Position numbers and translations under genes: made by a program. A stretch of DNA of 29,051 bases from IMG/VR virus record IMGVR_UViG_2778261705_000026. One strand, 5' to 3'. This DNA is from a virus. Taxonomy: Duplodnaviria; Heunggongvirae; Uroviricota; Caudoviricetes. A model generated the notes under the pieces. That model did not search any database. It had not been told where the DNA came from and saw nothing but the letters and a program-made list of their open reading frames with translations. Shown here piece after piece: positions 1 to 23,271 of the stretch (position 1 is its first letter; every line of letters begins with the position of its first letter).

Positions 1-219
1 TTACATCCACATAATTTGCTGCCCTGACGGCAACGGGTGCGGCCTTACGGCGTGGACTTCTCCCGGCTTCACGATGTATCGCTGTACCGACTCATAAGTG
101 ATGAACGTGGCGCTGCAATTCACGTTCTGACACTGGTGATAACGCTCTTTTGTCGTGTCAGTGATATAGCGGCTTGTACGCGCATGTGCGGCATGCTGGC
201 ATAAAGGACAATGAAACAT
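1..219 (-). CDS. ogr: Ogr late-gene transcriptional activator (zinc-finger, 72 aa)
   Basis: Translation MFHCPLCQHAAHARTSRYITDTTKERYHQCQNVNCSATF... has the C-x2-C...C-x4-C arrangement of P2 Ogr; ATG at 217-219 (minus); the ORF-track start at 282 is a TTG extension. Confidence 0.9.
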   Translation of the reverse strand: MFHCPLCQHAAHARTSRYITDTTKERYHQCQNVNCSATFITYESVQRYIVKPGEVHAVRPHPLPSGQQIMWM

Positions 220-300
220 CGCGAGCACCTCTTCCGGTTTTGTTGATGTTGCCATTTTAGTTAATTTATCCTTACAAAACAAACAGATAAATAAAACACA

Positions 301-1464
301 TCACTCATCATCTTCGGTTTCGTACTCCACATCAGAAAGCCTTACCTCAAGCTCTAAGGACGTCGTGAAGCCGCTATTATTCAGAAAATGTGTCACCTTA
401 GTGATTGTCCAGTCCTGCTCGTCTATGACGCGCTTAAAGCCTGACACTCTGACCGGCGTTTCCGTGTAAATATCAGCCCGACCAGTGGCAAGGCTGATGG
501 AGAACTCCGCAACGCCCCGTTGCAGTTTGTCCCACTTCGCCTGAGCGGCGCGCATGGCCTGCGCTTTCGTGGCATATACCGTGGTCAGGGCAAAAACGTT
601 GTCAGCCTCACCGGCCATGTATTCACCTTCGCGCGCTTCCGGTACTTTTGGCGCTTTCTTCTGCCTGACCGGTTTCGCTTTCGGGTGCTCCAGTGCGCGC
701 AGGTGTTTCTCTTTCTTTTTGCGTTTCAGTTTTACCTTCTGCTTTTGTGGCTTCGGGTCTTTGGTGTGTAACCACTTTGCCGTTACGCCGGTGTAGGCTC
801 CACGGTCAGCAATCGCAAAATGATGACGGTCGCCGTCGCTGCGGGTGATGGTGACCTGCGCGATTTTTTTACCACTTGCCGTCACCCCCTGCCCCGCTTT
901 GAGAAACAACAGTTTTCCCATTTTTACCGACACCTCACCGCCGTTGCGTTCAGCAAGGCGGGTCAGGAATTTCGCATCAGACTCCTGCGACTGGTCGATG
1001 TGCGGAATTTTAATTCCGGCCAGTGACGGCGCGACACTGGCTTCCAGCTTGTTACGGGAGGCTATCGCCTCAACAATCGCACCGAGCGTGGTGTCATGCC
1101 AGGAGCCTTCCCGGCGGGAATTGAGCGTCCCGCGAAAATCTGCACTCCGGGCGCGGATGGTGACCACATCCGGTGCGCCCCGGTGTTCAACCTCATCAAC
1201 GGTAAATTTCCCTTTGCATACCAGGGCAAAACCTTTCCAGCCGATATACACCGTCAGGACAGCGCCACGAACCGGCAGCCCGACCTGCCCGTCGGCATCG
1301 TTCAGTTCAATATCAAGCTGGTCAGCCTCAAAGCCCCGGTTATCCGTCAGGGTCATACTCATCAGACGGTCGCTGATATTGCCGGTAATATCCCTGCTGT
1401 CGAGCATCAGCATGTAATCCGGCGTCAGCGTACTGCCTGCATCAAATGTCAGCGCATCCAGCAT
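301..1464 (-). CDS. D: Tail protein D (late control gene D homologue), 387 aa
   Basis: Length and position after U match P2 gpD; ATG at 1462-1464 overlaps the U stop (TAATG). Confidence 0.88.
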   Translation of the reverse strand: MLDALTFDAGSTLTPDYMLMLDSRDITGNISDRLMSMTLTDNRGFEADQLDIELNDADGQVGLPVRGAVLTVYIGWKGFALVCKGKFTVDEVEHRGAPDVVTIRARSADFRGTLNSRREGSWHDTTLGAIVEAIASRNKLEASVAPSLAGIKIPHIDQSQESDAKFLTRLAERNGGEVSVKMGKLLFLKAGQGVTASGKKIAQVTITRSDGDRHHFAIADRGAYTGVTAKWLHTKDPKPQKQKVKLKRKKKEKHLRALEHPKAKPVRQKKAPKVPEAREGEYMAGEADNVFALTTVYATKAQAMRAAQAKWDKLQRGVAEFSISLATGRADIYTETPVRVSGFKRVIDEQDWTITKVTHFLNNSGFTTSLELEVRLSDVEYETEDDE

Positions 1465-1943
1465 TATCCCACCCCCGTCATACCCGTGAATCTGGTCGCC
1501 ATACTGCCAGCCTTACCGATGAGCGATTCCGCCTGTTTACCGATATCGCCATAAAGCGCGGCCAGTGATTCATCAACGCGGGTGAGCGACAGCGTAAAAT
1601 CAATTTTCCGGGGTGTGCCGTCTGCAAAGAAAATACTCCCTGTTTCACTCACCCTGCTGATGACATACATGCCGTAAATCATGCCGGTACCATCCAGCAA
1701 CGGCCACGCCCGGCCTTCCTCTGCCATCAGTCTGAGCGTGGTCATCGTCAGCTTGCCGCCGGTCAGTTCGGGATAAAGCACACCGGCAAGCGTCATGTTT
1801 TCCTCACCAACGCCGAGAAACTGAAAGGCATCCCGTTTACCGATACGGGAATTTGACGGCCAGCGATAATCTGATTCACGCTGCATGGTCTGGTGTGGCA
1901 GCGTCTGGCGCATAAAAACAAACATACCTAACGCGAGCATCAT
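1464..1943 (-). CDS. U: Tail protein U, 159 aa
   Basis: Position between T and D and size match P2 gpU; ATG start. Confidence 0.85.
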   Translation of the reverse strand: MMLALGMFVFMRQTLPHQTMQRESDYRWPSNSRIGKRDAFQFLGVGEENMTLAGVLYPELTGGKLTMTTLRLMAEEGRAWPLLDGTGMIYGMYVISRVSETGSIFFADGTPRKIDFTLSLTRVDESLAALYGDIGKQAESLIGKAGSMATRFTGMTGVG

Positions 1944-1957
1944 TTTTCGTCACCTCC

Positions 1958-4405
1958 TTAACCGTCATGCATCATGCTGGCACGGGCGCGCGCACGTTTA
2001 TCCCGCTCGTATTTTTCGAGCGCATCCTGTAACTGGCGGTCAAGCTGTGTCCCCGGCGCAGTACCACCCGTCAGGCTGATGTGATATTCGTTTTTACTCT
2101 GGTCCACATAAGAGCGGCCAGCCGGTGCCGTGACCGGCTGATAAGCCTGATAGCCTGCATAAGAGCTGGTCGCCGGAATATAACCACCGGTGCCATACGT
2201 GGCGGCATGAGTTCTGGCGGCGGTCTGGTCAAGTGTGTCTGACTCTTTGTTGATAACACCGAGTTTTTCCAGTACCCAGTCAATACCACTGCGCAGTTTG
2301 TTGAACGCATTAAGCGGCAGCATCAACGCGTCAGCCAGTGCCTGCCCGAACATGACGCCCGTGTCACGGCAACGGTTCAGGGTGTCCTGGGTGGCTTTGA
2401 CCGGGGCAATCAGGTTTTTAAACCACTGCCACGCGGCCTGTAACTTTTCGCCCAGCCAGTCAAACACCGGCTTCAGTGGCGTGAACAGTTCCCCCACCGG
2501 CGCAAATGCCGCTTTCAGCCCTTCCATCACACCGCCAAAGAATGCGCTGACAGGCTCCCAGTATTTACGGATAAGCAACGCTCCGGCGACAATTGCGGCC
2601 ACCACGGCCACAACCGGCCAGCTAATCGCCCCGATGGCCGTCATAACAGCACTGCCAACCGTCGTGAAGATTGCCCCCATCGCCCCTGCTGCAGCAATGA
2701 TGGCATTGATGCCGGTGATAACCGGCCAGGCTACAAGACCAATGGCACCGATGATGCCAATAAGCGCCAGCGCGCCACCGACAATGAGGCCGATGGTTGA
2801 CGCCAGTGATTTGTTTTTCTGGATCCAGCCGTCGAGTTTTAACACATACTTTGTGGCCGTCTGCGTGAGATTACGCAGTGCGCCTTCCTGCTGGTCAAAC
2901 AGGTCTGTCCCCACCGCCTCATAAGCGGACTGAAACTCCTTAAAGTCACCGCCGAGGTTATCCTGCATGATTTTAACCAGCTCTTCCGTTTTACCGTCCG
3001 AGGCTTTCAGCGTGGCAGTCAGCTTATCCAGTTTTCCGCTTGCTGCCGCTGCCAGTAAAACGTTCGCTGATTTCAGGGCTTCCTCACCAAAAATGGTTTT
3101 AAGGTATTCCCCCTTCTGAGACGTTCCCAGCTTGTGTTTATCAAAGCTGGCCTGAATCTCTTTCAGAATGGTGAACAACGGACGCATATTTCCCTTTTTG
3201 TCCGAGGTTTTAACGCCAAGCTCTTTGAGTGCATCCCATGCTTTTCCAGTCGGTGCCTGTAATCGGGTGACAACGGCACTGCTACCCGTCCCCGCCATTG
3301 ACCCCCTGATGTTATTGTCATGCAGCACACCTGTCATGGCCGCTGCCTGCTCAAGACTTACACCTGCCGTCCTCGCAACCGGACCGAGGTAAGTCAGTGC
3401 ATCACTGAGTCCCTGAAAATCAGCCGCCGACTTATTCATCGTTGCCGACAACACGTCGCCCACATGGCTGACATCATCATTTGACAGTTGAAAGGATGCC
3501 TTAGTCCCCAGCAACAGTTGAGCGTTTTCTTCCATCGACCGCTGATTCGCCAGTGCCATATTCAGCGTGACCGGCGTTGCCGCCTGAATAGCCGCAGCAT
3601 CCCCACCGGCTTTCGCAATGATAATCTGTGCACCGGCTGCATCATCCGCCGAGGCGGCGGTATTGTCACCGAGCTGGCGCGCCTGCTTGCGGAGTGCGGT
3701 CATTTCGGCGGAGTCTTTTGCCACACCGAGCACAGCCTGCAATTCTGAGTTTTTCTGCGCAAACTCATAACCGGGCATCAGCAGCTTAACTCCGGCCATC
3801 GTTCCCGCCGCCGCAATCCCCACACCGGCAGCGCCTACTGAGGCCATATTTCCGGCCAGTTCCTTTCCTGCCTGATAACGCTGTTTGACTGCGTTAAGTT
3901 TTGCCTGTTGTGCACTGACACGCGCCAGCGCGTCACGCTGACGGTTAAGCTGGGCGGTGGTTTCACTGATACGGTTTTTCAGCCCTCGTTCATCATGCGC
4001 CAGATTACGGGTATTAATACCCGCCTGACTCAATTCCTGACGCTGGCGCTGTACCGACAATCTCAGGCTGTTATATTTCGCCTGTAACTCAGACGCATTT
4101 TTACGCGCGGCTTCCATTGCCTTTGCCTGTGCATTTGTCGGTCGTTCAGTATTTTTAAACTGGACAGCCAGAGCTGCGGCTTCCTGTCTGGCTTTTTTCA
4201 GTTCCTGACCAGTCACGGCGAGCTGTGCACTGGTCTTGCGAAATCCCTCAATACGGGATGCCTGACCGTTCAGCTCGCGCAGTGATTTTTGTGTGTCCCG
4301 GATATCCCCCGACAGCGACTTGCTCGCTGTACGGATGGATTTAAACGGGCGGGATGCCTGGTCAACAGCCCTGAGCAATACCTGTAATTTTACATTGTTA
4401 CTCAT
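1958..4405 (-). CDS. T: Tail tape measure protein T, 815 aa
   Basis: Long helical, Ala/Gln-rich N-terminal half, Gly/Ala-rich hydrophobic central segment, position after E/E'; typical tape measure. Confidence 0.9.
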   Translation of the reverse strand: MSNNVKLQVLLRAVDQASRPFKSIRTASKSLSGDIRDTQKSLRELNGQASRIEGFRKTSAQLAVTGQELKKARQEAAALAVQFKNTERPTNAQAKAMEAARKNASELQAKYNSLRLSVQRQRQELSQAGINTRNLAHDERGLKNRISETTAQLNRQRDALARVSAQQAKLNAVKQRYQAGKELAGNMASVGAAGVGIAAAGTMAGVKLLMPGYEFAQKNSELQAVLGVAKDSAEMTALRKQARQLGDNTAASADDAAGAQIIIAKAGGDAAAIQAATPVTLNMALANQRSMEENAQLLLGTKASFQLSNDDVSHVGDVLSATMNKSAADFQGLSDALTYLGPVARTAGVSLEQAAAMTGVLHDNNIRGSMAGTGSSAVVTRLQAPTGKAWDALKELGVKTSDKKGNMRPLFTILKEIQASFDKHKLGTSQKGEYLKTIFGEEALKSANVLLAAAASGKLDKLTATLKASDGKTEELVKIMQDNLGGDFKEFQSAYEAVGTDLFDQQEGALRNLTQTATKYVLKLDGWIQKNKSLASTIGLIVGGALALIGIIGAIGLVAWPVITGINAIIAAAGAMGAIFTTVGSAVMTAIGAISWPVVAVVAAIVAGALLIRKYWEPVSAFFGGVMEGLKAAFAPVGELFTPLKPVFDWLGEKLQAAWQWFKNLIAPVKATQDTLNRCRDTGVMFGQALADALMLPLNAFNKLRSGIDWVLEKLGVINKESDTLDQTAARTHAATYGTGGYIPATSSYAGYQAYQPVTAPAGRSYVDQSKNEYHISLTGGTAPGTQLDRQLQDALEKYERDKRARARASMMHDG

Positions 4406-5412: not shown

Positions 5413-6603
5413 TTAATTGCTGTTAACCGAGGTGACCAGATTTGCCAGGTATTTATCGGTAATACGCTGGCGCAGGGTCAGGTTTTCAAGAGGAGGCACC
5501 GGGGTATAGTCGTAGTCGATATACAGTTTTCCGGCCTTAAGGGTTTCCGCATCGTTGGATTCTTCGCTGAACCAGCAGGTCGCATCCACGATATAGCCGT
5601 TTGTTTTCAGCTCACGGAATTTGGCATTGATGCCGTCAACGATGTCGCGAATCAGCGTTGCGGTGATGGGCTTGTCCACCGCCCACATGTGCGCCTCAGC
5701 CATCGTGTCGGCCAGCACCTGCGCGGTGCGGGTGTAGTTTTCAAAGAGGAACAGCGGGTCATCAGAGCAGGTACGGTTACCCCAGAAGCGGAAACCGTCA
5801 CGGCGAATCAGCGTTGTGACGCCTGACTCGTTAAGCAGGTCAGCATCAGTGCCGGACTCCTGCAAATCCCAGAATACAGATGCGCTGATGCCGGTAACAC
5901 CGTTCACCCCGACATTGGACAGCGTTTTATGCCAGCCCTGCTCCTGGTCGATTTTAGCGCGCAGACCCAGCGCACGGGCAGTGGCATACGCGGTGGCGGT
6001 GGTACTGGTGACCGTATCCCATGCGAGGAAATCCGGCCAGATGACCATCAGCTCACGCTGGCTGAAATTCTGGCGGTAGGCTTTCACCTCGGAAATGGTC
6101 TTACAGCCCCATGCGCTGATATACCCGAAAGCGCGCAACTTCTGACAGACTGATGCCAGTGCAACAGCCACCTCTTTGGTATCCAGCCCCGGCACACCGA
6201 GAATACGCGGTTTAACACCGGTTACCGACTCCGCCGCCAGCAGGGCTTTCAGTCCGGTGTACTGGCCGTTTTCGTCGGTGGTGCCGATGATATTGGAAAC
6301 GGTCTGCGCGAGTTTCGTTTCCTCGTCGTCGCCGGTGCCGTCTTCCACACGCACGACAACGGTGACCGGTTTTGACTGGTCGGCGATGGCCTGCAACGCT
6401 GCCGCCAGCGTGCCTTTTTTACCGGCCTTTGCAATTGCGCTCTGCACATTGGTAATCAGCACCGGTTTATTGAGGGGGAAGATTTCCGCATCCGCATCGC
6501 TGGCCGTGCAGACCATGCCGACAATGGCAGTGGATACGGTGGAAATGACGCGGGTGCCGTCGTTAATCTCCAGCACCTGCACGCCGTGATGATAGTCACT
6601 CAT
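5413..6603 (-). CDS. FI: Contractile tail sheath protein FI, 396 aa
   Basis: Size and position match P2 gpFI; GGAG ribosome-binding site about 9 nt upstream of ATG 6601-6603. Confidence 0.92.
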   Translation of the reverse strand: MSDYHHGVQVLEINDGTRVISTVSTAIVGMVCTASDADAEIFPLNKPVLITNVQSAIAKAGKKGTLAAALQAIADQSKPVTVVVRVEDGTGDDEETKLAQTVSNIIGTTDENGQYTGLKALLAAESVTGVKPRILGVPGLDTKEVAVALASVCQKLRAFGYISAWGCKTISEVKAYRQNFSQRELMVIWPDFLAWDTVTSTTATAYATARALGLRAKIDQEQGWHKTLSNVGVNGVTGISASVFWDLQESGTDADLLNESGVTTLIRRDGFRFWGNRTCSDDPLFLFENYTRTAQVLADTMAEAHMWAVDKPITATLIRDIVDGINAKFRELKTNGYIVDATCWFSEESNDAETLKAGKLYIDYDYTPVPPLENLTLRQRITDKYLANLVTSVNSN

Positions 6604-6662
6604 CCGTTTAACTCCGTGGTTAATGGGTGAGTGGTATTTTCAGTTGTGCCGGAGATGTCAGG
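6604..6662 (-). promoter_or_regulatory. Expected position of the Ogr-dependent late promoter for FI-FII (PF)
   Basis: Inferred from P2 gene organisation only; no specific promoter element identified with confidence. Confidence 0.3.
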
Positions 6663-7256
6663 CTATTTGTCCCGGTTGGCTAAGGGATGACACAATTTAT
6701 TCTTTGTCACTGATGAGGGGAATTTTTTATAGAGCGTGGACAGGCCAATATCAAAAATCAGCGCCACACGTTGACGAGATTCCCCCGCAGCCAGCAACCG
6801 TCCGACCTGCTCCCACTCACTCGCGGTGAGTTTCGGACGTCTGCCACCAATACGACCTTTGGCTCTGGCCGCTTCCAGTCCGGCGCGTGTCCGCTCGACA
6901 ATGAGTTCTCGCTCCATTTCAGCCAGGGCACCCATCACATGAAAGAAAAAACGTCCCATCGGCGTGCTGGTATCAATAGCATCCGTCAGACTGCGAAAAT
7001 TAACGCCGCGTTCGCGCAGTTCCTCAACCAGAATGACCAGATGCCGCATACTACGCCCCAGCCTGTCCAGCTTCCAGACTACCAGAGTGTCACCTGCTGA
7101 TAATGTTCTGAGCAGTTTTTTCAGTCCCGGTCTGTCGGACTTCGTGCCGCTGATTTTATCCTCAAAAATCCGCTCGCATCCTGCGCACTCCAGCGCGTTA
7201 CGCTGCAATTCCGTGTTCTGGTCATTTGTTGACACGCGTACATAGCCAATAAGCAT
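6663..7256 (-). CDS. Serine recombinase / DNA invertase of the Gin/Hin/Cin/Pin family (about 197 aa)
   Basis: MLIGYVRVSTNDQNTELQRNALECAGCERIFEDKISG...GRFFFHVMGALAEMERELIVERT...ALIFDIGLSTLYKK is near-collinear with Mu Gin as I recall it (catalytic Ser in YVRVST, C-terminal HTH); an upstream in-frame ATG at 7262 would add two residues. Confidence 0.9.
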   Translation of the reverse strand: MLIGYVRVSTNDQNTELQRNALECAGCERIFEDKISGTKSDRPGLKKLLRTLSAGDTLVVWKLDRLGRSMRHLVILVEELRERGVNFRSLTDAIDTSTPMGRFFFHVMGALAEMERELIVERTRAGLEAARAKGRIGGRRPKLTASEWEQVGRLLAAGESRQRVALIFDIGLSTLYKKFPSSVTKNKLCHPLANRDK

Positions 7257-7311
7257 GAGCATCCCCCTGAATAAAAACCGGAGATGATGCCAGTTGCCCG
7301 TTATCTCTGCA

Positions 7312-7337
7312 TTTTCATAAACGTTGGTTTGGGAGAA
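7312..7337. repeat. Inversion crossover site, left (gix/hix-like 26 bp): TTTTCATAAACG TT GGTTTGGGAGAA
   Basis: Core TT plus inner half-site GGTTTGGGAGAA are exactly inverted at 9158-9171; inner half resembles the hix GGTTTTTGATAA half-site; lies about 55 bp upstream of the invertase start. Confidence 0.75.
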
Positions 7338-7697
7338 GCGGCAAAACGGGATGTGGGGACAGGAGAAAATCAGATACCGGACATGGCCTCTTTTGCCAGT
7401 GGTGATGGATGGATGAAATTACCCAACGGGAAAATCCTGCAATATGGTCGTGGTGCGGTTACGCCGACATTATCGACGCAAACAATGAGAATTACATTCA
7501 GCATCCCTTTTCCTAAAAAAGTGGACTGCGCCATGCTTACCCATTCTGGTGATGGTGGTGCGCCTTTAGGCGCTGGACGGGGATTCGTGATGACTGCAGA
7601 AGGTACAACACTAACCGGTTTTAATTCCGCTTACAGAACTGCATCAACCAGCGACACGGTATCGATGAATTACAGTTGGTGGGCTGTTGGTGAGTAA
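7326..7697 (+). CDS. Alternative tail-fibre C-terminal variable domain Hv' (promoterless and silent in this orientation)
   Basis: Plus-strand frame GLGEAAKRDVGTGENQIPDMASFASGDGWMKLPNGK... begins exactly at the crossover site with the same GGT TTG GGA GAA codons that continue the H constant part; the ORF-track N-terminus 7284-7325 lies outside the segment behind an in-frame TAA at 7272. Confidence 0.7.
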   Translation, partial: GLGEAAKRDVGTGENQIPDMASFASGDGWMKLPNGKILQYGRGAVTPTLSTQTMRITFSIPFPKKVDCAMLTHSGDGGAPLGAGRGFVMTAEGTTLTGFNSAYRTASTSDTVSMNYSWWAVGE

Positions 7698-7717
7698 TTT
7701 TATTCAGGGTGATTTAT

Positions 7718-8161
7718 ATGAACGAATATGTTTATAGCGCAAGGCATAATGCTTTTTTCCCTGTGGATATGATTGATAAATATAAATCAGAGGGATGGAA
7801 TTTATCAGACGCTAAGGAAGTAAATCAAAATATTATCAGTGAGTTTATGGCTGAACCGCCACAAGGAAAAATCCGTATTGCCGGAGATGATGGGCTGCCT
7901 GCGTGGGCAGATATTCCTCCACCCACGCATGAAGAGCTTATTGAAATTACTGAATCAGAAAGACAGCTACTAATTAACCAGGCCAACGAATACATGAACA
8001 GTAAGCAATGGCCCGGTAAAGCCGCTATTGGTCGTCTGAAAGGTGAGGAACTGGCGCAATATAATTTGTGGCTGGATTATCTGGACGCACTGGAGCTGGT
8101 TGATACCTCCAGTGCGCCAGATATTGAATGGCCTACGCCTCCGGCAGTTCAGGCCAGATGA
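7718..8161 (+). CDS. Alternative tail fibre assembly protein G' (silent in this orientation)
   Basis: C-terminus ...LWLDYLDALELVDTSSAPDIEWPTPP parallels the active G C-terminus ...AVLDYIDAVTATDTSTAPDVIWPELPEA; ATG at 7718 with AGGGTGA upstream; the track start at 7709 is GTG. Confidence 0.7.
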   Translation: MNEYVYSARHNAFFPVDMIDKYKSEGWNLSDAKEVNQNIISEFMAEPPQGKIRIAGDDGLPAWADIPPPTHEELIEITESERQLLINQANEYMNSKQWPGKAAIGRLKGEELAQYNLWLDYLDALELVDTSSAPDIEWPTPPAVQAR

Positions 8162-8735
8162 CATCCGGCGCTGTGCTGGTATCCGTTGCCGTCACCGCGT
8201 CAATGTAATCCAGCACAGCGTTTAGTCGGGTGGTTTCTGTCTGCGTCAGCTTCCTCCCGGCCCGCAATTTCAGTTGAATCAGACTAATGGAAGCCATTGC
8301 TGCATCAATCAGCGACTGGCGCTGTGCTTCTGCTGCATCTACTGCGGCGCTATGCTGTGCCTCGGTATCCGTCACCCATTTCTCACCATCCCATTTATCA
8401 TATGGCGTTAATGGGGCGATAGTGGTTGTATTTTCAGGGTAATCACCCGGAGCTGTGATTTCTTTTGATTCCCCTGTTTCGGTGCTAAAAACGATTTCAC
8501 CGCGATGGTCTGGCATATATTCCCATGATTTTAAATCTGCTGAACGGCAGATTGCATAACCAGCCTTATGTGTGCCAGGGGCATCTAAACAGGAACATGC
8601 CGGAATGCCGACACCAACGGCAAGATATTCATTTGAAGTGGAAATATATTCCCGTGTTTCACCATCATAGTTATAAACGGTAACATCCCCTGCCTTTGTT
8701 GCAATGAGCTCACTATTTAATATTGCTTTATGCAT
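8133..8735 (-). CDS. G: Tail fibre assembly protein G (currently expressed orientation), 200 aa
   Basis: Conserved tfa C-terminal motif; ATG overlaps the H stop (ATGA); directly after H. Confidence 0.85.
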   Translation of the reverse strand: MHKAILNSELIATKAGDVTVYNYDGETREYISTSNEYLAVGVGIPACSCLDAPGTHKAGYAICRSADLKSWEYMPDHRGEIVFSTETGESKEITAPGDYPENTTTIAPLTPYDKWDGEKWVTDTEAQHSAAVDAAEAQRQSLIDAAMASISLIQLKLRAGRKLTQTETTRLNAVLDYIDAVTATDTSTAPDVIWPELPEA

Positions 8736-9997
8736 CAGGCTGCCCTCACGATATAGTTAAATGCGACGTTGCGCGGCCGGGTTTCAGAACCACCAACCGA
8801 TACCGTAGAAATTGAATTTGCTGTAATAAGATTCCCGGAAGCATCAGCCGTAACTACGAACTGACCTCCCGTTGGATCAAAACCTGTTAGCGCATAGTAC
8901 TTGTCAAACCAGTGCCCATGAGAAGCAAATAAATGGTCTTGAGATGTCAACAAACCACGAGAGGAATCCACCCCGCGCCCATCATCCCATCCACGAATAA
9001 ATTCACCGCGTAAATCAGGCAATTTATTTGTCGGGTAAGCCTTTGCCAGTTCCGGGTATTCTTCAGCAGAAAAAGCCGCACCATTGCATTTCAGCCAGCC
9101 TGTTGGCGGAGTGGCTGAAGGCCACGGAACAGGCACCCCAACAGGTAATGCTGAGCCTTCTCCCAAACCAAGGTATGCGAGAAGACCGGCAACATCCTTT
9201 CCACTCAAATGAGTCAGCGTCTCATCCAGTGGCTGCTTACCTGACAGCGCATTGTTAATGGTGGTACTGAATTTCGGGTCATTGTTAATGGCTGCGGCAA
9301 TTTCTTTCAGTGTGTCCAGCGTGGCTGGCGCACCGTTAATCAGAGCGGTAATAGCGGCCTGAACAAACGCAGTGGTCGCAATCCGCGTGGTGTTATTTCC
9401 TGTGGCAGGCGTCGGCGCTTTTGGTTCTCCGGTAAATGTCGGATTATGTTTCTGCGCATACTGGGTATGAGGATCCTGTGCGGCAATGTGGTTTCTCATC
9501 TGGTCATCCACATACAGCTTTAATTCCAGGACTTCATCATCCACGTATTTACGGGTCGCCAGTACCACCGACGGGTCGATTTTCAGCGTGATGGCTTCGG
9601 TATTCGTGACAACCAGAATCATGCGGATAGTCTGGGTACGACCGCTGCCTTCCTGCAACTGCGGTTTGTACGTTTCCGGGCAGTTCGCCACCGCAATGAG
9701 TACGCCTTCATCATCATAAAGCCCAATCTCACGGATCCAGAATCCACCCTCGTTCTCAGGGATGATTTGCTCCGCAATAATCTGGCTCTGATTGTTCGGG
9801 TCAACACTCAGAAGATTCAGCGGCGCGATGCGTTTCTGGTTAATCAGTTTTGTCTGTGCCGGGTCTGGTGTCGGCAAGACACCATTCGCATCACCAACGG
9901 CCATTTGCGTCAGATTCAGCTTACTGCCGAGCATCGTCGCGTTAGCCAGCCGTGCTGCGCCCTGATTAGTCAGAATGGCGTAGTATTTCACTGTCAT
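8735..9997 (-). CDS. H: Tail fibre protein H (constant N-terminal part about 9170-9997 fused to variable part Hv 8738-9169), 420 aa
   Basis: N-terminus MTVKYYAILTNQGAARLANA... resembles P2/Mu-type tail-fibre N-termini; the C-terminal domain lies inside the invertible segment. Confidence 0.88.
   Translation of the reverse strand: MTVKYYAILTNQGAARLANATMLGSKLNLTQMAVGDANGVLPTPDPAQTKLINQKRIAPLNLLSVDPNNQSQIIAEQIIPENEGGFWIREIGLYDDEGVLIAVANCPETYKPQLQEGSGRTQTIRMILVVTNTEAITLKIDPSVVLATRKYVDDEVLELKLYVDDQMRNHIAAQDPHTQYAQKHNPTFTGEPKAPTPATGNNTTRIATTAFVQAAITALINGAPATLDTLKEIAAAINNDPKFSTTINNALSGKQPLDETLTHLSGKDVAGLLAYLGLGEGSALPVGVPVPWPSATPPTGWLKCNGAAFSAEEYPELAKAYPTNKLPDLRGEFIRGWDDGRGVDSSRGLLTSQDHLFASHGHWFDKYYALTGFDPTGGQFVVTADASGNLITANSISTVSVGGSETRPRNVAFNYIVRAA
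9158..9183. repeat. Inversion crossover site, right (inside H): TTCTCCCAAACC AA GGTATGCGAGAA
   Basis: Imperfect 12-2-12 palindrome; very close to hixL (TTCTTGAAAACC AA GGTTTTTGATAA) as I recall it; inner half and core are the exact inverse of 7324-7337. Confidence 0.75.
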
Positions 9998-10605
9998 GCG
10001 TTTACTCTCAGGTTATCAATTAAATGAATGGCCGAGGCCGGGAAATAATCCCCTCCGACAATAATGGCCTCCGGGGTGTAGGGATAAACCGTCAGGGCGT
10101 CACCGTGATAGCATCCTGCACCGGCAAAAATGTTGCCGGTTGTACTTAAACTGATAGCCAGTCCCGTCAGATGGCGGCTTGCAGGTTTTGCATCAGCAAC
10201 GAGGCGCTCCAGCTCCTGATACATTTCCTCGGTAATACCCTGCTCAAGCACGCCAACAACGATGCGGAACGTCCCCGGCTCCTCATTGAGTTGCCACCAC
10301 TCCCTCACCTCAATCAGATAGCCGAGCGGCTCCACCACACGACGGATTGCGCCTATAGTGCCCTTATGGCAGTGAATGAAATACGCATCGCGGATAACAG
10401 CGCGTTTTGTCGCTTCCGGCCACTTATCATCCCAGCGGTCAACCGAAAATGACCACGCCAGCCACGGCAGCAGATTTGCCGGACAGGTGTCCGGGTTCCA
10501 CAGCTCACGAATACTGACCGGCGTTTTTTCAATTTCTGCACAGGCTTTTGCGGCGGCGACTTCAAGCGGTGATGAGCCAGTCGGCAGCAGTCGCGAATCA
10601 CTCAT
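9994..10605 (-). CDS. I: Baseplate assembly protein I, 203 aa
   Basis: Position between J and H; ATG start overlaps the J 3' end. Confidence 0.82.
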   Translation of the reverse strand: MSDSRLLPTGSSPLEVAAAKACAEIEKTPVSIRELWNPDTCPANLLPWLAWSFSVDRWDDKWPEATKRAVIRDAYFIHCHKGTIGAIRRVVEPLGYLIEVREWWQLNEEPGTFRIVVGVLEQGITEEMYQELERLVADAKPASRHLTGLAISLSTTGNIFAGAGCYHGDALTVYPYTPEAIIVGGDYFPASAIHLIDNLRVNA

Positions 10606-17901: not shown

Positions 17902-18756
17902 TCAGCAGTTCGTCATCAGGGCGTCACCGCCACCGCCGGTGGCCTTGCTGCGGCGCTGCTGGGTCAGACTTTCGGTGTGGTCGAGACTGTTTTTCAGGCG
18001 GGTGAATGCCTGGCTGGTTTCATCCGCCCTGTCAGCTACATCCTGCTTAAGTGCGGAAAAGGCGGTTTCCATCTCTGCGAGGCGCTGCTCAGTGGCGCTC
18101 AGTTTTTCCTGCACATGTTCAGCAACAGCGGTCACCGCTTCATGCACGTCATTCAGACGGGCGTCATCGCTGGCCTGTTTGCGGCCAAAAATGGATTTCA
18201 CCTTTTCGGTCAGGGCGGTGAACACGGTTTCAGGCAGGTCTTCAAATTCCAGCTCAACAGGCGTTGCCACTGAAATCAGGTTTTCAGGGCTTAATTTGAA
18301 GCGGTTCAGGGGGTTGTGTTTTGCCGTGCGGCAGAATTCCAGGTATTCCGTGCCGAGGCTTGCCGGGTCATCGGTGACGGCCAGACCCACCAGATAACAT
18401 TTGCCGGTATTGGCAAAGTTCGGCTGAATTTCCATTGAGGTATAGACCTTCTGCGCGGCCTTGTTCATCGCGATAAGGTCATCGGTCGGGGTGATTTTCG
18501 CAAACAGCGCCCATTTGCCTTTCAGCGCCGAATCATCGTCAATCTTTTCGGCCTTCAGTTCGGCCACATCGCCATAACGCTTAAAAATACCGTCAGGCAG
18601 GATGCCGCGCAGATGTTCCAGGTTAATGCGGCAACCATAGACTCGCGGGTCAAAGGTTTCGGCCATTTCCTGAATATCCTGCGCACTGATGACACGCCCG
18701 TCACAGGTGTCACCCTCAACGCCGATACGAAAGAATTTTGAGACTTTTTTTGCCAT
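17902..18756 (-). CDS. O: Capsid scaffolding protein O, 284 aa
   Basis: Begins MAKKVSKFFRIGVEGDTCDGR...; size matches P2 gpO; ATG at 18754-18756; the track start at 18822 is an upstream extension. Confidence 0.9.
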   Translation of the reverse strand: MAKKVSKFFRIGVEGDTCDGRVISAQDIQEMAETFDPRVYGCRINLEHLRGILPDGIFKRYGDVAELKAEKIDDDSALKGKWALFAKITPTDDLIAMNKAAQKVYTSMEIQPNFANTGKCYLVGLAVTDDPASLGTEYLEFCRTAKHNPLNRFKLSPENLISVATPVELEFEDLPETVFTALTEKVKSIFGRKQASDDARLNDVHEAVTAVAEHVQEKLSATEQRLAEMETAFSALKQDVADRADETSQAFTRLKNSLDHTESLTQQRRSKATGGGGDALMTNC

Positions 18757-18929
18757 TGTCAGGAGTCCTGAATAGTGATTAGAGGAGTCACATGTCGGCA
18801 TCAGTTTCCCGACGATGCGCATCCTCCGCCATCAGTCCCGGATGGCTTATCACTGACACAACAGCACCTTAGCGAATCGCGGGGCGCGACTCAGTAGCCT
18901 TGCCGTGTATTCATCACGGCGAGGTATTC
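18757..18929. promoter_or_regulatory. Divergent late promoter region PO / PP
   Basis: Intergenic region between the divergently oriented O and P starts; imperfect dyad TGTCGG...CCGACg at 18793-18813 noted. Confidence 0.4.
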
Positions 18930-20702
18930 ATGACCATCACCACAGACACCACTCTTTTACACGACCCGCGTCGTCAGGCGGCGCTGCTGTACTGGCAGGG
19001 GTTTTCCGTGCCGCAGATTGCCGCCATGTTGCAGATGAAACGCCCGACGGTGCAGAGCTGGAAACAGCGCGACGGCTGGGACAGCGTTGCCCCCATCAGC
19101 CGTGTCGAAATGAGTCTGGAAGCGCGGCTGACCCAGCTCATCATCAAACCGCAGAAAACCGGCGGTGACTTCAAGGAAATTGACCTGCTCGGACGCCAGA
19201 TTGAACGACTGGCACGGGTCAACCGTTACAGTCAGACCGGCAACGAGGCAGACCTTAATCCGAACGTCGCTAACCGCAACAAAGGCGGGCGTCGCAAACC
19301 GAAAAAGAATTTTTTCAGTGACGAGGCCATCGAAAAGCTGGAGCAGATTTTCTTTGAGCAGTCTTTCGAATATCAGTTGCACTGGTATCGCGCCGGGCTT
19401 GAGCACCGCATCCGCGATATCCTGAAATCCCGCCAGATTGGCGCGACGTTTTATTTTTCCCGCGAGGCGCTGCTGCGCGCCCTGAAAACAGGTCATAACC
19501 AGATTTTTCTGTCGGCCAGTAAAACGCAGGCGTATGTGTTCCGTGAATACATCATCGCCTTTGCCCGGCTGGTTGACGTTGACCTGACCGGTGACCCGAT
19601 TGTCCTGGGCAATAACGGCGCAAAACTGATTTTTCTCGGCACCAACTCCAACACCGCGCAGAGCCATAACGGCGACCTGTACGTCGATGAGATTTTCTGG
19701 ATCCCGAATTTTCAGGTACTGCGTAAGGTGGCATCAGGTATGGCCTCACAGAGTCACCTGCGCTCGACCTATTTCTCCACCCCGTCCACGCTGGCGCACG
19801 ACGCCTACCCGTTCTGGTCAGGTGAACTGTTCAACCGGGGACGCGCCAGCGCCGCCGAACGCGTGGAAATCGACGTCAGTCATAACGCCCTTGCCGGTGG
19901 GCTTCTCTGTGCGGACGGCCAGTGGCGGCAGATTGTCACCATTGAGGACGCCCTGAAAGGCGGCTGCACACTGTTCGACATTGAGCAGCTCAAACGCGAA
20001 AACAGCGCCGACGATTTTAAAAACCTGTTCATGTGTGAATTTGTTGACGACAAGGCGTCGGTATTCCCGTTCGAGGAGCTGCAACGCTGCATGGTCGACA
20101 CGCTGGAAGAATGGGAAGACTATGCGCCGTTTGCCGCCAATCCGTTCGGCTCCCGCCCGGTATGGATTGGTTACGACCCGTCACACCGTGGCGACAGCGC
20201 CGGATGCGTGGTGCTGGCACCGCCGGTGGTGGCCGGTGGCAAATTCAGAATACTTGAGCGTCACCAGTGGAAAGGCATGGACTTTGCCACCCAGGCTGAA
20301 TCCATCCGCAAACTCACTGAAAAATACAACGTCGAATACATCGGTATTGATGCCACCGGCCTCGGTGTCGGCGTGTTCCAGCTCGTGCGCTCGTTCTATC
20401 CCGCCGCGCGTGATATCCGCTACACGCCGGAAATGAAAACCGCAATGGTGCTCAAGGCAAAAGACGTCATCCGCCGTGGCTGTCTGGAATATGACGTCAG
20501 CGCCACCGACATCACCAGCTCGTTTATGGCTATCCGCAAGACCATGACCAGCAGCGGACGCAGCGCCACCTATGAGGCCAGCCGCAGCGAGGAAGCCAGC
20601 CACGCCGACCTCGCCTGGGCGACCATGCACGCCCTGTTAAATGAGCCACTCACCGCCGGTATCAGCACCCCGCTGACATCCACCATTCTGGAGTTTTACT
20701 GA
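18930..20702 (+). CDS. P: Terminase ATPase (large) subunit P, 590 aa
   Basis: Begins MTITTDTTLLHDPRRQAALLYWQGFSVPQIAAMLQ...; GAGG ribosome-binding site at 18921-18924; the track start at 18900 is TTG. Confidence 0.92.
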   Translation: MTITTDTTLLHDPRRQAALLYWQGFSVPQIAAMLQMKRPTVQSWKQRDGWDSVAPISRVEMSLEARLTQLIIKPQKTGGDFKEIDLLGRQIERLARVNRYSQTGNEADLNPNVANRNKGGRRKPKKNFFSDEAIEKLEQIFFEQSFEYQLHWYRAGLEHRIRDILKSRQIGATFYFSREALLRALKTGHNQIFLSASKTQAYVFREYIIAFARLVDVDLTGDPIVLGNNGAKLIFLGTNSNTAQSHNGDLYVDEIFWIPNFQVLRKVASGMASQSHLRSTYFSTPSTLAHDAYPFWSGELFNRGRASAAERVEIDVSHNALAGGLLCADGQWRQIVTIEDALKGGCTLFDIEQLKRENSADDFKNLFMCEFVDDKASVFPFEELQRCMVDTLEEWEDYAPFAANPFGSRPVWIGYDPSHRGDSAGCVVLAPPVVAGGKFRILERHQWKGMDFATQAESIRKLTEKYNVEYIGIDATGLGVGVFQLVRSFYPAARDIRYTPEMKTAMVLKAKDVIRRGCLEYDVSATDITSSFMAIRKTMTSSGRSATYEASRSEEASHADLAWATMHALLNEPLTAGISTPLTSTILEFY

Positions 20703-21736
20703 TGAGCAAGAAAAAAGGGAAAACACCGCAACCTGCGGCAAAAAAAATGACCGCCAGCGCCCCGAAAATGGAGGCATTCACCTTTGGTGAGCCAGTGCCG
20801 GTACTCGACCGCCGTGACATTCTGGATTACGTCGAGTGCATCAGTAACGGCAGATGGTATGAGCCACCGGTCAGCTTTACCGGTCTGGCAAAAAGCCTGC
20901 GTGCTGCCGTGCATCACAGCTCGCCGATTTACGTCAAACGTAATATTCTGGCCTCGACATTTATCCCGCATCCGTGGCTTTCCCAGCAGGATTTCAGCCG
21001 CTTTGTGCTGGATTTTCTGGTGTTCGGTAATGCATTTCTGGAAAAGCGTTACAGCACCACCGGTAAGGTCATCAGACTGGAAACCTCACCGGCAAAATAT
21101 ACCCGCCGTGGCGTGGAGGAGGATGTTTACTGGTGGGTGCCGTCCTTCAACGAGCCGACAGCCTTCGCGCCCGGTTCCGTGTTTCACCTGCTGGAGCCGG
21201 ATATTAATCAGGAGCTGTACGGCCTGCCGGAATATCTCAGCGCCCTTAACTCTGCCTGGCTGAATGAGTCGGCCACGCTGTTCCGCCGCAAGTATTACGA
21301 AAACGGCGCACATGCCGGATACATCATGTACGTCACTGATGCCGTGCAGGATCGCAACGATATCGAAATGCTCCGCGAAAACATGGTGAAGTCGAAAGGC
21401 CGCAACAACTTTAAAAATCTGTTTCTCTATGCCCCGCAAGGGAAAGCCGACGGCATTAAAATTATCCCGCTCAGTGAAGTGGCAACGAAGGACGATTTTT
21501 TTAATATCAAAAAAGCCAGCGCCGCAGACCTGCTGGACGCGCACCGCATCCCTTTTCAGTTGATGGGCGGCAAGCCGGAGAACGTCGGGTCGCTGGGTGA
21601 TATTGAGAAAGTGGCAAAGGTCTTTGTCCGCAATGAGCTTATCCCGTTACAGGACAGGATCCGCGAGATAAACGGCTGGCTCGGTCAGGAGGTCATCCGC
21701 TTTAAAAACTACTCACTGGACACCGACAACGGCTGA
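20702..21736 (+). CDS. Q: Portal (capsid) protein Q, 344 aa
   Basis: Size and position match P2 gpQ; ATG overlaps the P stop (TGATG). Confidence 0.92.
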   Translation: MSKKKGKTPQPAAKKMTASAPKMEAFTFGEPVPVLDRRDILDYVECISNGRWYEPPVSFTGLAKSLRAAVHHSSPIYVKRNILASTFIPHPWLSQQDFSRFVLDFLVFGNAFLEKRYSTTGKVIRLETSPAKYTRRGVEEDVYWWVPSFNEPTAFAPGSVFHLLEPDINQELYGLPEYLSALNSAWLNESATLFRRKYYENGAHAGYIMYVTDAVQDRNDIEMLRENMVKSKGRNNFKNLFLYAPQGKADGIKIIPLSEVATKDDFFNIKKASAADLLDAHRIPFQLMGGKPENVGSLGDIEKVAKVFVRNELIPLQDRIREINGWLGQEVIRFKNYSLDTDNG

Positions 21737-21741
21737 ACATC

Positions 21742-21763
21742 GCCGCCTGCGGGCGGCTTTTTT
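21742..21763 (+). terminator. Rho-independent terminator after Q (GCCGCC tgcg GGCGGC followed by TTTTTT)
   Basis: Perfect 6-bp GC stem, 4-nt loop and 6-T run, 6 nt after the Q stop codon. Confidence 0.8.
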
Positions 21764-21905
21764 ACACCCCGTCATCACGCCCTCACACGCTCACCACCGC
21801 ACAAAACACCCCGCAGACACACCAACGCCCCGGCGCACAATCCAAACGCCGTCACGACGCGCTGAGACGCTGAAAAAATAAAATCAGCACCACCGCCAGC
21901 GCGCA

Positions 21906-21924
21906 GTGCTTTCCCCGCCTCGCC
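21906..21924. other. cos: cos site (19-nt cohesive-end sequence; window shows GTGCTTTCCCCGCCTCGCC)
   Basis: Reverse complement equals GGCGAGGCGGGGAAAGCAC, which I recall as the P2 cohesive end; adjacent to Q as in P2. Confidence 0.6.
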
Positions 21925-22052
21925 CGCCCGCTTTATGGGTCGATTTTAATGCAAGTGCACGAACACACCGGAGGCGCACCAGTACTGGCGGTGGTCACGT
22001 AGGTCCACCCCTTAAAAGCCATGCAGAATAATGCAACTATTGCGGGCGTCGG

Positions 22053-22472
22053 CTAATCATCTTCTAAAGGTGGAATTTTGATGCCACTAATTAGCAGGAC
22101 TTTCCGGTATGCCTCAAAAATAATGTTGTGTGTTTTTTTTAAATCATCGAGCATTTTTTGTCGTCCTGTTGGGGTATTTCTGGCGAAATTATGAGCGCGA
22201 AAAAAATCATGTGCCAAGTAGTTTCGAGCTGATAGAGCCAGTTCTACATGTTGTAGAGTTTCATCATCTGCCACCCCTTTTTGACGCAATAAATTGCTTA
22301 GACTACCTAATGTTAACTTATCAAATTTTAAGAATTTTTCTTTTAATGTTGGAATGTCTTCACCTTGCTTCATTTCATGTTCGATAAGGACATTAATCAG
22401 TTCAGCTTCCAACAAGTGTGCAGCTTCTGAGGTGTAACCGAACTTCCAAAAGACTTCATCAAGTGTTGCCAT
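22053..22472 (-). CDS. Hypothetical cargo protein, 139 aa, all-helical, with Rx4HxF motif (candidate HEPN/HepT-like RNase)
   Basis: Visibly AT-rich compared with flanking phage genes; motif ...LALSARNYLAHDFFRAH...; ATG at 22470-22472 (the track start at 22481 is GTG); ends just before the cos flank. Confidence 0.6.
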   Translation of the reverse strand: MATLDEVFWKFGYTSEAAHLLEAELINVLIEHEMKQGEDIPTLKEKFLKFDKLTLGSLSNLLRQKGVADDETLQHVELALSARNYLAHDFFRAHNFARNTPTGRQKMLDDLKKTHNIIFEAYRKVLLISGIKIPPLEDD

Positions 22473-22609
22473 ATGTTCCACTCAAGATAAATGCAGGTTA
22501 TGAAAAAGAAGAATGATGATGGAAATTCCAGATGAAGTCTAACGCCTCGCTCCGCTCGTTGTTCAACCCCGCCAGCCCTGAAAACAAGTTTCACGACTGG
22601 CGGGGTTCT

Positions 22610-22816
22610 CTATCGTCTGCGTGGTGGTGGCGCAACTCTGGACTGACCGATATAGTTAAACCGCCCGTAATTATCCCGGACTATTTCAGCACACCCGACC
22701 AGCTCATCAGGTGTCAGATTTTCGTTGACCATAATCTGCTGTAGACGGTGAACAATGGCCATCAGCTTGATATTTTTAGTTTTATGGTGCGGTATCTCGC
22801 CTGGTATTCTGTGCAT
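22610..22816 (-). CDS. Possible small ORF (68 aa) translationally coupled to the upstream ASCH-like gene
   Basis: ATG 22814-22816 overlaps the upstream TAA (TAATG); followed 3 nt downstream by an 11-bp GC-rich hairpin; no recognisable domain; a plus-strand ORF 22532-22744 overlaps in antisense. Confidence 0.3.
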   Translation of the reverse strand: MHRIPGEIPHHKTKNIKLMAIVHRLQQIMVNENLTPDELVGCAEIVRDNYGRFNYIGQSRVAPPPRRR

Positions 22817-23271
22817 TATCCAAGCCACCCATGTTGCTTTGCACGCTCCACCTGTTCATCTGAATAGTTCCATGCTCCATCCGTGGCAACCATTGCCCCG
22901 CCTGACATCCCCGTATCTGGTTCATACATAACAGCAAGGCCGAGCTGATGCATAATTTCATGATTAATTCTGAATACCAGACCACGTTCACTAAGTTCTT
23001 TCCAGTTCACAATCTTATATGCGCCCGTATTAAGCAGCTCAATACTTAGCAAGACATAATCTTCCAGCCAGTCTGACAGGTCAGTAACATCTGTTATCCG
23101 GGCTTCAACCTTTCGCCCCGTAAACACACCCTGCACCCATTCATGCAAAATCAACGTGTCCCCGCGCTCATAATTACGGTCATTTTTCCTAAACTCTGCG
23201 CGTTTCTTTCCTTCCAGCACAAGGTCGAAATATTTTGCGTGCAGCTTTACCTCGTGAATTTTTGCCATCAT
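22816..23271 (-). CDS. ASCH/DUF3850-like protein with C-terminal HEIMH (HExxH) motif, about 151 aa
   Basis: N-terminus MAKIHEVKLHAKYFDLVLEGKKRAEFRKNDRNYERGDTLILHEW matches the DUF3850/ASCH pattern as I recall it; C-terminal RINHEIMHQLG; ATG overlaps the A stop (ATGA). Confidence 0.6.
   Translation of the reverse strand: MMAKIHEVKLHAKYFDLVLEGKKRAEFRKNDRNYERGDTLILHEWVQGVFTGRKVEARITDVTDLSDWLEDYVLLSIELLNTGAYKIVNWKELSERGLVFRINHEIMHQLGLAVMYEPDTGMSGGAMVATDGAWNYSDEQVERAKQHGWLG

Follow-up and report, generated by a model that had tools for sequence, protein, structure and literature searches.

The window, by which we mean the whole 29,051-nucleotide stretch of DNA that was analysed, carries a tail module in the order of phage P2, with D-U-T-E-FII-FI on one side and H-I-J-W-V on the other of a cassette that separates gene H from the sheath gene FI. 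The module encodes P2-type proteins, in which Pfam identified sheath, Tail_P2_I and tail-collar fibre N-terminal domains. The window is 93-95% identical in DNA to Peduovirus records and its ORF sizes agree with those of an annotated relative; by size, it holds the full P2 late gene set. DNA invertases with inverted neighbour genes are reported to be common in the Z/fun hotspot of P2 (bioRxiv 10.1101/2024.10.15.618418). Within the present cassette, two sets of tip and chaperone genes converge, Hv with G on the minus strand and Hv' with G' on the plus strand, and an invertase gene lies next to them (Table 1).

Table 1. Coordinates of the tail-fibre genes, crossover sites and recombination functions in the window
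Feature	Position	Strand	Description
DNA invertase gene	6663-7256	minus	197 aa; serine recombinase of the Pin/Gin/Hin family; outside the invertible segment
Candidate recombinational enhancer	7149-7235		putative Fis sites within the invertase gene's 5' end; proposed from homology only
Invertase-proximal (left) crossover site	7312-7337		core TT at 7324-7325; from repeat search and site alignment
Invertible segment	7324-9171		1,848 bp, core to core inclusive
Hv', silent alternative H C-terminus	7326-7697	plus	123 aa; gp53-like tip
G', second tail-fibre assembly protein	7718-8161	plus	147 aa; facing away from the late operon; Pfam Caudo_TAP, 2.3e-31
G, tail-fibre assembly protein	8133-8735	minus	200 aa; currently 3' of H; Pfam Caudo_TAP, 4.4e-33
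H, current form	8735-9997	minus	420 aa; right crossover site inside
Hv, tip now in use	8735-9169	minus	144 aa; C-terminal receptor-binding part of H, with collar domain
H-internal (right) crossover site	9158-9183		plus-strand core AA at 9170-9171, in the H Leu276 codon CTT
H constant N-terminal part	9170-9997	minus	residues 1-276; Pfam Phage_tail_fib N-terminal domain, 2.4e-62

Two inverted crossover sites bound the segment

A repeat search across positions 6500-10500 returned, as the longest inverted repeat, two arms of 27 nt (7312-7338 and 9157-9183) that are 81% complementary. It thereby recovered the pair of inverted 26-bp sites that a first, sequence-only reading of this DNA had proposed, with the right-hand one inside gene H, as the ends of a segment of about 1.84 kb beside a Gin/Hin-family invertase. 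Both sites can be written as two 12-bp half-sites around a 2-bp core, the left site reading TTTTCATAAACG TT GGTTTGGGAGAA and the right, reverse-complemented, TTCTCGCATACC TT GGTTTGGGAGAA. The two agree at 21 of 26 positions; both cores read TT once the sites are put in the same sense, and the inner half-site GGTTTGGGAGAA is identical, so that an exact stretch of 15 bp, TTGGTTTGGGAGAAG, is common to both. Symmetry between half-sites is 8/12 in the left site and 10/12 in the right. When either site was compared with hixL, 19-20 of the 26 positions matched. No other invertase-type 26-bp site occurs in the 29-kb window, where a search for further crossover sites, as a sign of a shufflon (compare the second EPEC locus below), found none.

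One constant fibre part and two tips with no detectable homology

The tip now joined to the constant part of H, Hv, contains the Pfam Collar domain (PF07484, 9.5e-16), matches the tip structure of T4 gp37 (2XGF, 4.9e-16) and is 57.6% identical to StfE of the Escherichia coli prophage e14. The silent Hv' has no start codon of its own within the segment and contains the Pfam Gp53-like_C domain (PF21882, 1.6e-13). Inversion of the segment in silico joined Hv' in frame to H residues 1-276 and gave an intact H of 399 aa, and this same ORF is found intact in E. coli strain 64. The fusion had been foreseen in the sequence-only reading, at ...AYL/GLGE, with an Hv' of 124 residues; its length is 123. 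Residues 1-280 are identical in the 420-aa and 399-aa products.

Hv and Hv' had also been described as diverged paralogues, a relationship that finds no support at the sequence level. BLASTP between the two is insignificant (E = 1.2), a permissive Pfam scan produced no cross-hits between PF07484 and PF21882 even at E = 10, and a search of PDB sequences matched the two tips to different solved structures. The GLGE common to both arises from the crossover site itself, since the inner half-site GGTTTGGGAGAA encodes these four residues. Separately, we observed that the RefSeq annotation of the flipped state wrongly divides H into a 'pseudogene' and a separate gp53-like gene.

Each tip is accompanied by its own chaperone gene, and the domain assignment of G' bears out the earlier prediction of a second assembly protein. 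The 3' end of G overlaps G' by 29 bp on opposite strands. G is 94.5% identical to TfaE of e14, and G' is 53.6% identical to TfaP of e14 and 98.6% identical to the O157:H7 copy; likeness between G and G' is confined to their C-terminal 72 aligned residues, of which 36% are identical.

The invertase is intact and its gene contains a candidate enhancer region

The invertase gene begins 56 bp past the left site, its likely start being the Met that aligns with Met1 of Gin, two codons inside an ORF of 199 aa. The product contains the Pfam Resolvase (PF00239, 8e-53) and HTH_7 (PF02796, 5.5e-13) domains, matches the Gin structures 3UJ3 and 4M6F with E about 1e-93 over 182 residues, and is 84.8% identical to PinE, 77% to Mu Gin and 98.5% to the O157:H7 copy. 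Marks that distinguish invertases from resolvases are a basic helix B (Hin residues 47, 48 and 51) and Gln151/Arg154/Leu155 (PMC3798978). The window's protein has K46/K47/R50 and Q150/R153/L154, at the same positions as Gin and PinE, as well as the active-site serine, Ser9 (Gin Ser9, Hin Ser10). The offset of one residue between Hin and the window's protein comes from an alignment with 1HCR, whose chain begins at Hin residue 139. The invertase is full length and intact, with all catalytic and Fis-contact residues kept.

Three 15-mers of the form G-N13-C, at 7221-7235, 7172-7186 and 7149-7163 (positions 22-36, 71-85 and 94-108 of the gene), have counterparts in the same register in gin of Mu and pinE of e14, and over its first 150 nt the gene shares 72% identity with gin and 87% with pinE. 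This homology suggests that the 5' end of the invertase gene may hold a recombinational enhancer with Fis sites. The first two 15-mers are spaced by 49 bp, close to the 48 bp of Hin. The centre of the first lies about 96 bp from the crossover core; in the Hin system the enhancer is about 100 bp from the nearer site (PMC3798978).

A sigma-70-like promoter for the invertase was sought at 7256-7340 and not found, in a scan whose number of hits equalled the shuffle expectation and which is uninformative. A terminator-like hairpin (7295-7276) separates the invertase start from the left site, and Rfam gave no hits anywhere in the window.

Both orientations occur in close relatives

In E. coli strain 64, positions 7321-9174 of the window align in inverted orientation between collinear flanks, with the breakpoints within the two sites. 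The O157:H7 strains TW14359 and EC4115 likewise differ by inversion of the segment; their flanks are 100% identical and both 26-bp sites are as in the window. Among 5,426 complete E. coli genomes, the cassette in P2 context was found in the window's orientation in 105 and in the other in 86, as counted with 3.35-kb queries spanning the full region and with P2 context required on both sides. Queries of 500 bp covering the junctions only gave 284 vs 862 genomes; since the 'inverted' query also hits the pinE-stfE junction of e14, these counts were discarded for measuring orientation. A single assembly, TUM11352, holds both orientations. The two orientations that the sequence-only reading had predicted exist in close relatives with the same sites. 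Switching is also documented in cultures: both orientations of a P2-like cassette of EPEC E2348/69 (NC_011601, 2977580-2979467) coexist in single-colony cultures (Goldberg et al. 2014, PMC4272514), and the P segment of e14 flips within cultures (PMC12529663). By extension from its relatives, the closest of which are 95-99% identical and have identical sites, the window's own element would be expected to switch as well.

In other species, draft contigs were seen to stop at the crossover site. Crossover sites of this kind can break assemblies or produce false replicons.

The inverted repeat could in principle be a product of chance, or the inversions in relatives a product of general (RecA) recombination rather than of the invertase. 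Exact inverted repeats of at least 15 nt arose in 13 of 200 rough shuffles of about 4 kb, palindromes counted too, and the exact 15-bp inverted repeat is by itself not very rare. The weight therefore falls on the identity of the site with that of e14 and on natural inversions that break exactly at the sites. The left site is identical at 26 of 26 positions to the pinE-proximal site of e14, and also to the O157:H7 and strain 64 sites; the right site was found identical in O157:H7, strain 64, strain 65COLEC and two phage records. Both fit the hix/gix layout, and the 26-bp consensus, allowing up to three mismatches, was matched in 0 of 100 shuffles. Inversion breakpoints in independent genomes are precise to the 15-bp repeat, and the in-frame fusion is preserved in strain 64. 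Efficient RecA recombination needs more than fifteen base pairs. We regard the probability that chance or RecA accounts for the observations as negligible.

It is also conceivable that the invertible architecture has been kept while flipping has ceased in the present host, with the invertase unexpressed or the prophage defective and the orientation fixed. The result of the promoter search and the hairpin upstream of the invertase would fit such a frozen state, as would the related EPEC cassette, which is 93% in one orientation (PMC4272514). We nevertheless judge it highly improbable: no catalytic or Fis-contact residue is missing from the full-length invertase, both sites match those of O157:H7 prophages seen in both orientations, and the ORF sizes give a full P2 late gene set. 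Moreover, other Pin-family invertases of the host can act in trans, as PinQ does on e14 (PMC12529663).

A leader ORF crosses the left site

An ORF of 137 aa (7284-7697) begins at an ATG at position 7284, outside the segment, and continues in frame through the left site to enter the silent cassette. Such an ORF raises the question of whether the switch, besides or instead of altering virions, serves the lysogen, with free tip protein masking a surface receptor and blocking other phages. An in-frame leader is present in the window, in e14, in an EPEC locus (L006), in a Shigella locus (L012) and in Mu; RefSeq annotates leader-type ORFs as CDS, and the counterpart in e14, StfE2, is reported to block T2 adsorption (PMC12529663). 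Across 25 invertase loci, however, an in-frame ATG before any stop was found in 10, as against 7 and 4 in two control frames. The leader ORF is not enriched over the control frames, and the StfE2-like reading therefore stays speculative. In addition, close relatives such as L015 and L021 meet a stop three codons before the site, conservation of the leader peptide is poor, and a promoter-like site facing the leader was not found. We consider a role in the lysogen highly improbable, and give the same low standing to the proposal that the invertase-facing tip is made there with its chaperone, as a protein of 137 aa or, after inversion, of about 158 aa. If true, the switch would toggle a host defence in addition to the virion tip.

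Proposed switch

This analysis observed the two sites, an invertase that is intact, fusions that stay in frame and, among close relatives, both orientations of the segment. On this basis, the tail-fibre module of this P2-like (Peduovirus) prophage very probably contains a Pin/Gin-type site-specific inversion switch. The invertase would bind the two 26-bp sites, cut at the central TT/AA dinucleotide and rotate the 1.85-kb segment, and would probably need host Fis bound to an enhancer within the gene that encodes it, at the 5' end. By analogy with P2, the late operon would run V-W-J-I-H-G from a late promoter and enter the segment from the H side, so that orientation would set which products are made. 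In the window's orientation, these would be H residues 1-276 joined to Hv, a 420-aa fibre with a collar-type tip, and chaperone G; in the other, H residues 1-276 joined to Hv', a 399-aa fibre with a gp53-like tip, and chaperone G'. Because orientation would set the tip, a lysogenic culture would be predicted to release two kinds of virion with different receptor-binding tips. Host range depends on orientation in Mu and P1, and this precedent, together with the unrelated tips, suggests that the two orientations may differ in host range here also.

As a phage DNA switch, the system is ordinary and of a type already described. Pin/Gin-type inversion of tail-fibre segments was already known in the 1980s, and experiments have demonstrated it in e14 and in cassettes of P2-like prophages, so that the present case carries little weight as a discovery. 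Across the roughly 190 complete E. coli genomes that carry this cassette type, both orientations are represented, and in prophage typing the two orientations are best counted as one element. If the tips were assigned to receptors, they could provide interchangeable modules for retargeting P2-type particles.

Comparison with known systems

The sequence-only reading had called the cassette Mu-G-like. This description holds for the mechanism, but the nearest system is the Pin/P segment of e14, the cryptic prophage of K-12 (pinE, stfP-tfaP / tfaE-stfE), as judged by the proximal site, the invertase and the likeness of G to TfaE given above. The 15-bp TTGGTTTGGGAGAAG is common to e14 and the window, Hv shares 93% DNA identity with e14 over the 5' part of its coding sequence, and the two chaperone genes of e14 have a 29-bp 3' overlap, as in the window (PMC12529663). 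The segment of e14 is of similar length, 1,797 bp as against 1,848 bp in the window. The prophages themselves differ, e14 being a defective lambdoid remnant in which the constant tail-fibre part is StfP and not P2 H, whereas the window's cassette lies within an apparently complete P2-like late operon. The C-terminus of StfP has no significant likeness to Hv' (the best BLASTP match covers 14 residues, with E = 0.022).

The EPEC cassette whose two orientations coexist in cultures has the same gene order as the window (tip, chaperone, chaperone, gp53-like tip, invertase, sheath, tube). Its G is 92% and its invertase 79.7% identical to those of the window, and there is one mismatch among the 26 positions of its proximal site. 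Likeness of the tips is only moderate, at 56% for Hv and 48% over 79 aligned residues for Hv', and the EPEC cassette, unlike that of the window, lies in a truncated prophage remnant without the constant part of H. A second P2-like locus in EPEC has three repeats and four states (PMC4272514), in contrast to the two sites of the window.

The Mu G/Gin and P1 C/Cin systems follow the same logic, with a constant tail-fibre N-terminus, two C-termini each with a chaperone, and 26-bp sites. As in the window, the invertase gene lies just outside the segment, and the enhancer is at the 5' end of that gene, where the window has its candidate. The G segment of Mu is about 3 kb, compared with 1,848 bp here, and the gix sites of Mu, TTCCTGTAAACC GA GGTTTTGGATAA, have a GA core unlike that of the window. 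Between the DNA of Mu and that of the window, likeness was detected in the invertase gene alone, and the phage that carries the system is Mu-like rather than P2-like.

Salmonella LT2 has a second invertase, Fin of the P2-like prophage Fels-2. The Hin/H segment of Salmonella resembles the window's system in its invertase subfamily, in the layout of its 26-bp sites and in the conserved Fis/enhancer contact residues, but it flips a promoter that switches flagellin genes rather than tail-fibre C-termini (PMC3798978).

Genomic setting of the cassette

The cassette lies between G and FI, at the position known in P2-like phages as the Z/fun hotspot, where a DNA invertase and inverted neighbour genes are frequent (bioRxiv 10.1101/2024.10.15.618418). 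Compared with an annotated relative, the remaining ORFs of the window follow the pattern expected when a P2-like late region is complete, and the window is 93-95% identical to Peduovirus records. G+C content is 0.44-0.49 in the segment and 0.55-0.61 in the flanking structural genes, consistent with an acquired module. The P2 old/tin hotspot, here the stretch 21737-23304 separating portal gene Q from replication gene A, also contains cargo of low G+C (0.39 at 22200-22599), with a 142-aa ORF at 22056-22481 (-) that has no family match and a 162-aa DUF3850/ASCH + DUF7415 protein at 22819-23304 (-). No Rfam family was found in the whole window.

Genes of the invertible cassette and its immediate neighbours
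Feature	Coordinates	Strand	Assignment
Tail sheath FI	5413-6603	-	Sheath domains (Pfam)
Invertase	6663-7256	-	Resolvase + HTH_7 (Pfam)
Hv' (123-codon reading frame)	7326-7697	+	Gp53-like_C (Pfam)
G' (147 aa)	7718-8161	+	Caudo_TAP (Pfam)
G (200 aa)	8133-8735	-	Caudo_TAP (Pfam)
H (420 aa)	8735-9997	-	P2-type tail-collar fibre N-terminus; Collar domain at residues 287-334 (Pfam)
P2 gene I	9994-10605	-	Tail_P2_I (Pfam)

Crossover sites and invertase

The longest inverted repeat returned by a repeat finder in 6500-10500 has arms at 7312-7338 and 9157-9183 (27 nt, 81% complementary, spacing 1,818 nt). Set out as Hin/Gin-type sites (12-2-12), the invertase-proximal (left) site at 7312-7337 reads TTTTCATAAACG TT GGTTTGGGAGAA, and the right site at 9158-9183, inside tail-fibre gene H, reads in reverse complement TTCTCGCATACC TT GGTTTGGGAGAA. 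The two match at 21 of 26 positions, with core and inner half-site identical, as expected from the sequence-only reading, which had placed inverted 26-bp sites at both ends of the segment. An exact 15-bp inverted repeat arose by chance in 4 kb in 13 of 200 rough shuffles and is thus not very improbable alone; the 26-bp site consensus had no match in 100 shuffles, and the left site is identical at all 26 positions to the pinE-proximal site of the invertible P segment of e14, a cryptic prophage of E. coli K-12. No additional crossover site was found across the 29-kb window, so the arrangement is a two-state switch; a shufflon is ruled out by the absence of a third site.

The adjacent gene had been assigned to the Gin/Hin family, and this assignment was confirmed. 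Its product aligned with Mu Gin (PDB 3UJ3, 4M6F) over 182 residues (E about 1e-93); its identity is 77% with Gin, 84.8% with e14 PinE and 98.5% with the copies of E. coli O157:H7 and E. coli strain 64. It retains the catalytic Ser9, together with the basic helix B and the Gln/Arg/Leu of DNA-binding-domain helix 1 that are specific to Fis/enhancer-dependent invertases (McLean et al., PMC3798978). Over its first 150 nt the gene shares 72% identity with gin and 87% with pinE, and three G-N13-C 15-mers are in register across the three genes. The first lies ~96 bp from the crossover core, the corresponding distance in the Hin system being roughly 100 bp (PMC3798978). We infer that the 5' part of the gene contains a putative recombinational enhancer with candidate Fis sites. 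A terminator-like hairpin with a T run behind it (7276-7295, -) separates the left site from the start codon of the invertase and could protect this gene from read-through transcription arriving from the late operon and the segment; terminator-like matches in the region are only about twice the shuffle mean. By precedent of the invertase family, cleavage at the 2-bp core would be followed by subunit rotation, inversion would depend on Fis and supercoiling, and the P2 late promoter upstream of V would be the sole source of cassette transcripts.

Products of the two orientations

When 7324-9171 was inverted in silico, H read via the right site into the silent C-terminus Hv', yielding an intact 399-aa protein that has residues 1-280 in common with the present H, with the exchange point inside the Leu276 codon. 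The late-operon direction then carries Hv' followed by the assembly chaperone gene G', in place of the present Hv and G. The in-frame fusion proposed earlier was recovered, also as an intact ORF in strain 64; Hv' was counted at 123 residues rather than 124.

Hv and Hv' had been taken for diverged paralogues, a suggestion that did not survive. BLASTP found no relationship between them (E = 1.2), and each belongs to a different Pfam family, with no cross-hits even at E = 10. The matches of Hv are to the collar regions of T4 gp37 and gp12; the sole match of Hv', a weak one, is to a short-tail-fibre tip. The inner half-site itself encodes the GLGE common to both, so every cassette on these sites must start with it, and the GW-K-NG resemblance is too small to weigh as evidence of paralogy. 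G and G' are related only over their C-terminal 72 aligned residues (36% identity). By analogy with Mu and P1, and with the tips unrelated, receptor and host range would be expected to differ between orientations.

The Hv tip is itself mosaic: both its ends align to the otherwise 93-98% identical relatives L001, L002, L004 and e14, whereas its middle (8789-8965) does not, and full-length matches were restricted to strain 06-3462 (98.9%) and strain 64. The 3' ends of G and G' overlap on opposite strands at 8133-8161, as do those of tfaP and tfaE in e14. Inverted repeats lie nearby at 8071-8088/8197-8214, spanning codons of the C-terminal motif LDY(L/I)DA common to both chaperones, and at 8169-8191/8198-8220.

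An ATG at 7284, outside the segment, opens a 14-codon leader (7284-7325) that extends in frame through the left site and on into the silent tip, to 7697. An in-frame leader is also present in e14, the EPEC (L006) and Shigella (L012) loci and Mu, and StfE2, the e14 equivalent of the leader-tip product, is reported to block T2 adsorption (Kirigo et al., PMC12529663). Among 25 loci the leader showed no conservation: an ATG in frame preceded any stop in 10, against 7 and 4 for control frames, and close relatives have a stop just upstream of the site. A StfE2-like product from leader and silent tip is conceivable but improbable.

Both orientations occur in relatives

Close relatives carry both orientations, with breakpoints precisely at the sites. 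The same prophage region in strain 64 follows the window collinearly as far as 7338 and again from 9157, with 7321-9174 inverted. In the O157:H7 strains TW14359 and EC4115 the cassette sits at one common chromosomal place, with both 26-bp sites the same as the window's; the two strains agree completely in the flanks (100% identity over 3.7 and 3.8 kb) but have the intervening 1.9 kb in opposite orientations. Using 3.35-kb queries that had to span from the invertase to the constant part of H, we found the window's orientation in 105 complete E. coli genomes and the other orientation in 86. RefSeq/PGAP annotates the flipped state as two separate features, an H 'incomplete, missing C-terminus' and a 'gp53-like domain-containing protein' (L003 5724-6923; L010 5206-6405), although the 399-aa ORF is intact in L003 (strain 64); the split is a systematic artefact of the inverted orientation.

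The E. coli TUM11352 assembly holds one orientation in the chromosome and the other in an 88-kb 'plasmid' (pMTY11352_3, NZ_CP134387.1, deposited as circular; cassette at 18001-21414). The latter contains chromosomal genes (cmk, ycaL, aroA, ycaO, focA, pflB), several of them frameshifted, and a P2-like prophage, and probably arose as a spurious alternative contig when a culture of mixed orientations was assembled. Among species-representative draft genomes, contigs ended within a few bases of the invertase-proximal site (L013, L015, L016, L019, L028) or within about 125 nt of it (L018, L023, L025, L030); contigs stopped at or just inside this site in Yokenella, Citrobacter, Kluyvera, Dryocola, Photorhabdus and Pantoea. 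Such ends are typical of assemblers where two paths leave a repeat, and mark the sequenced cultures as heterogeneous in orientation. In the EPEC P2-like cassette (NC_011601 2977580-2979467), both orientations coexist in single-colony cultures by paired-end sequencing, and in the e14 P segment coexistence was confirmed also by PCR (Goldberg et al., PMC4272514). Inversion of the P segment has been measured by qPCR, and can be driven in trans by a second, distant Pin protein (Kirigo et al., PMC12529663).

Comparison with known systems

The window holds two sites of the family layout, an intact invertase with the family signatures and in-frame products both ways. The original observation was accurate and the mechanism is well supported; invertible tail-fibre systems of this kind are already known and common. 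The description 'Mu-G-like' suits the logic of the switch, but the nearest system is the e14 Pin/P segment, with an identical proximal site, an 85% identical invertase, a TfaE 94.5% identical to G, a similar segment length and two chaperone genes that likewise overlap by 29 bp. In the EPEC locus, gene order is as in the window, G is 92% and the invertase 80% identical, and one position of the proximal site differs.
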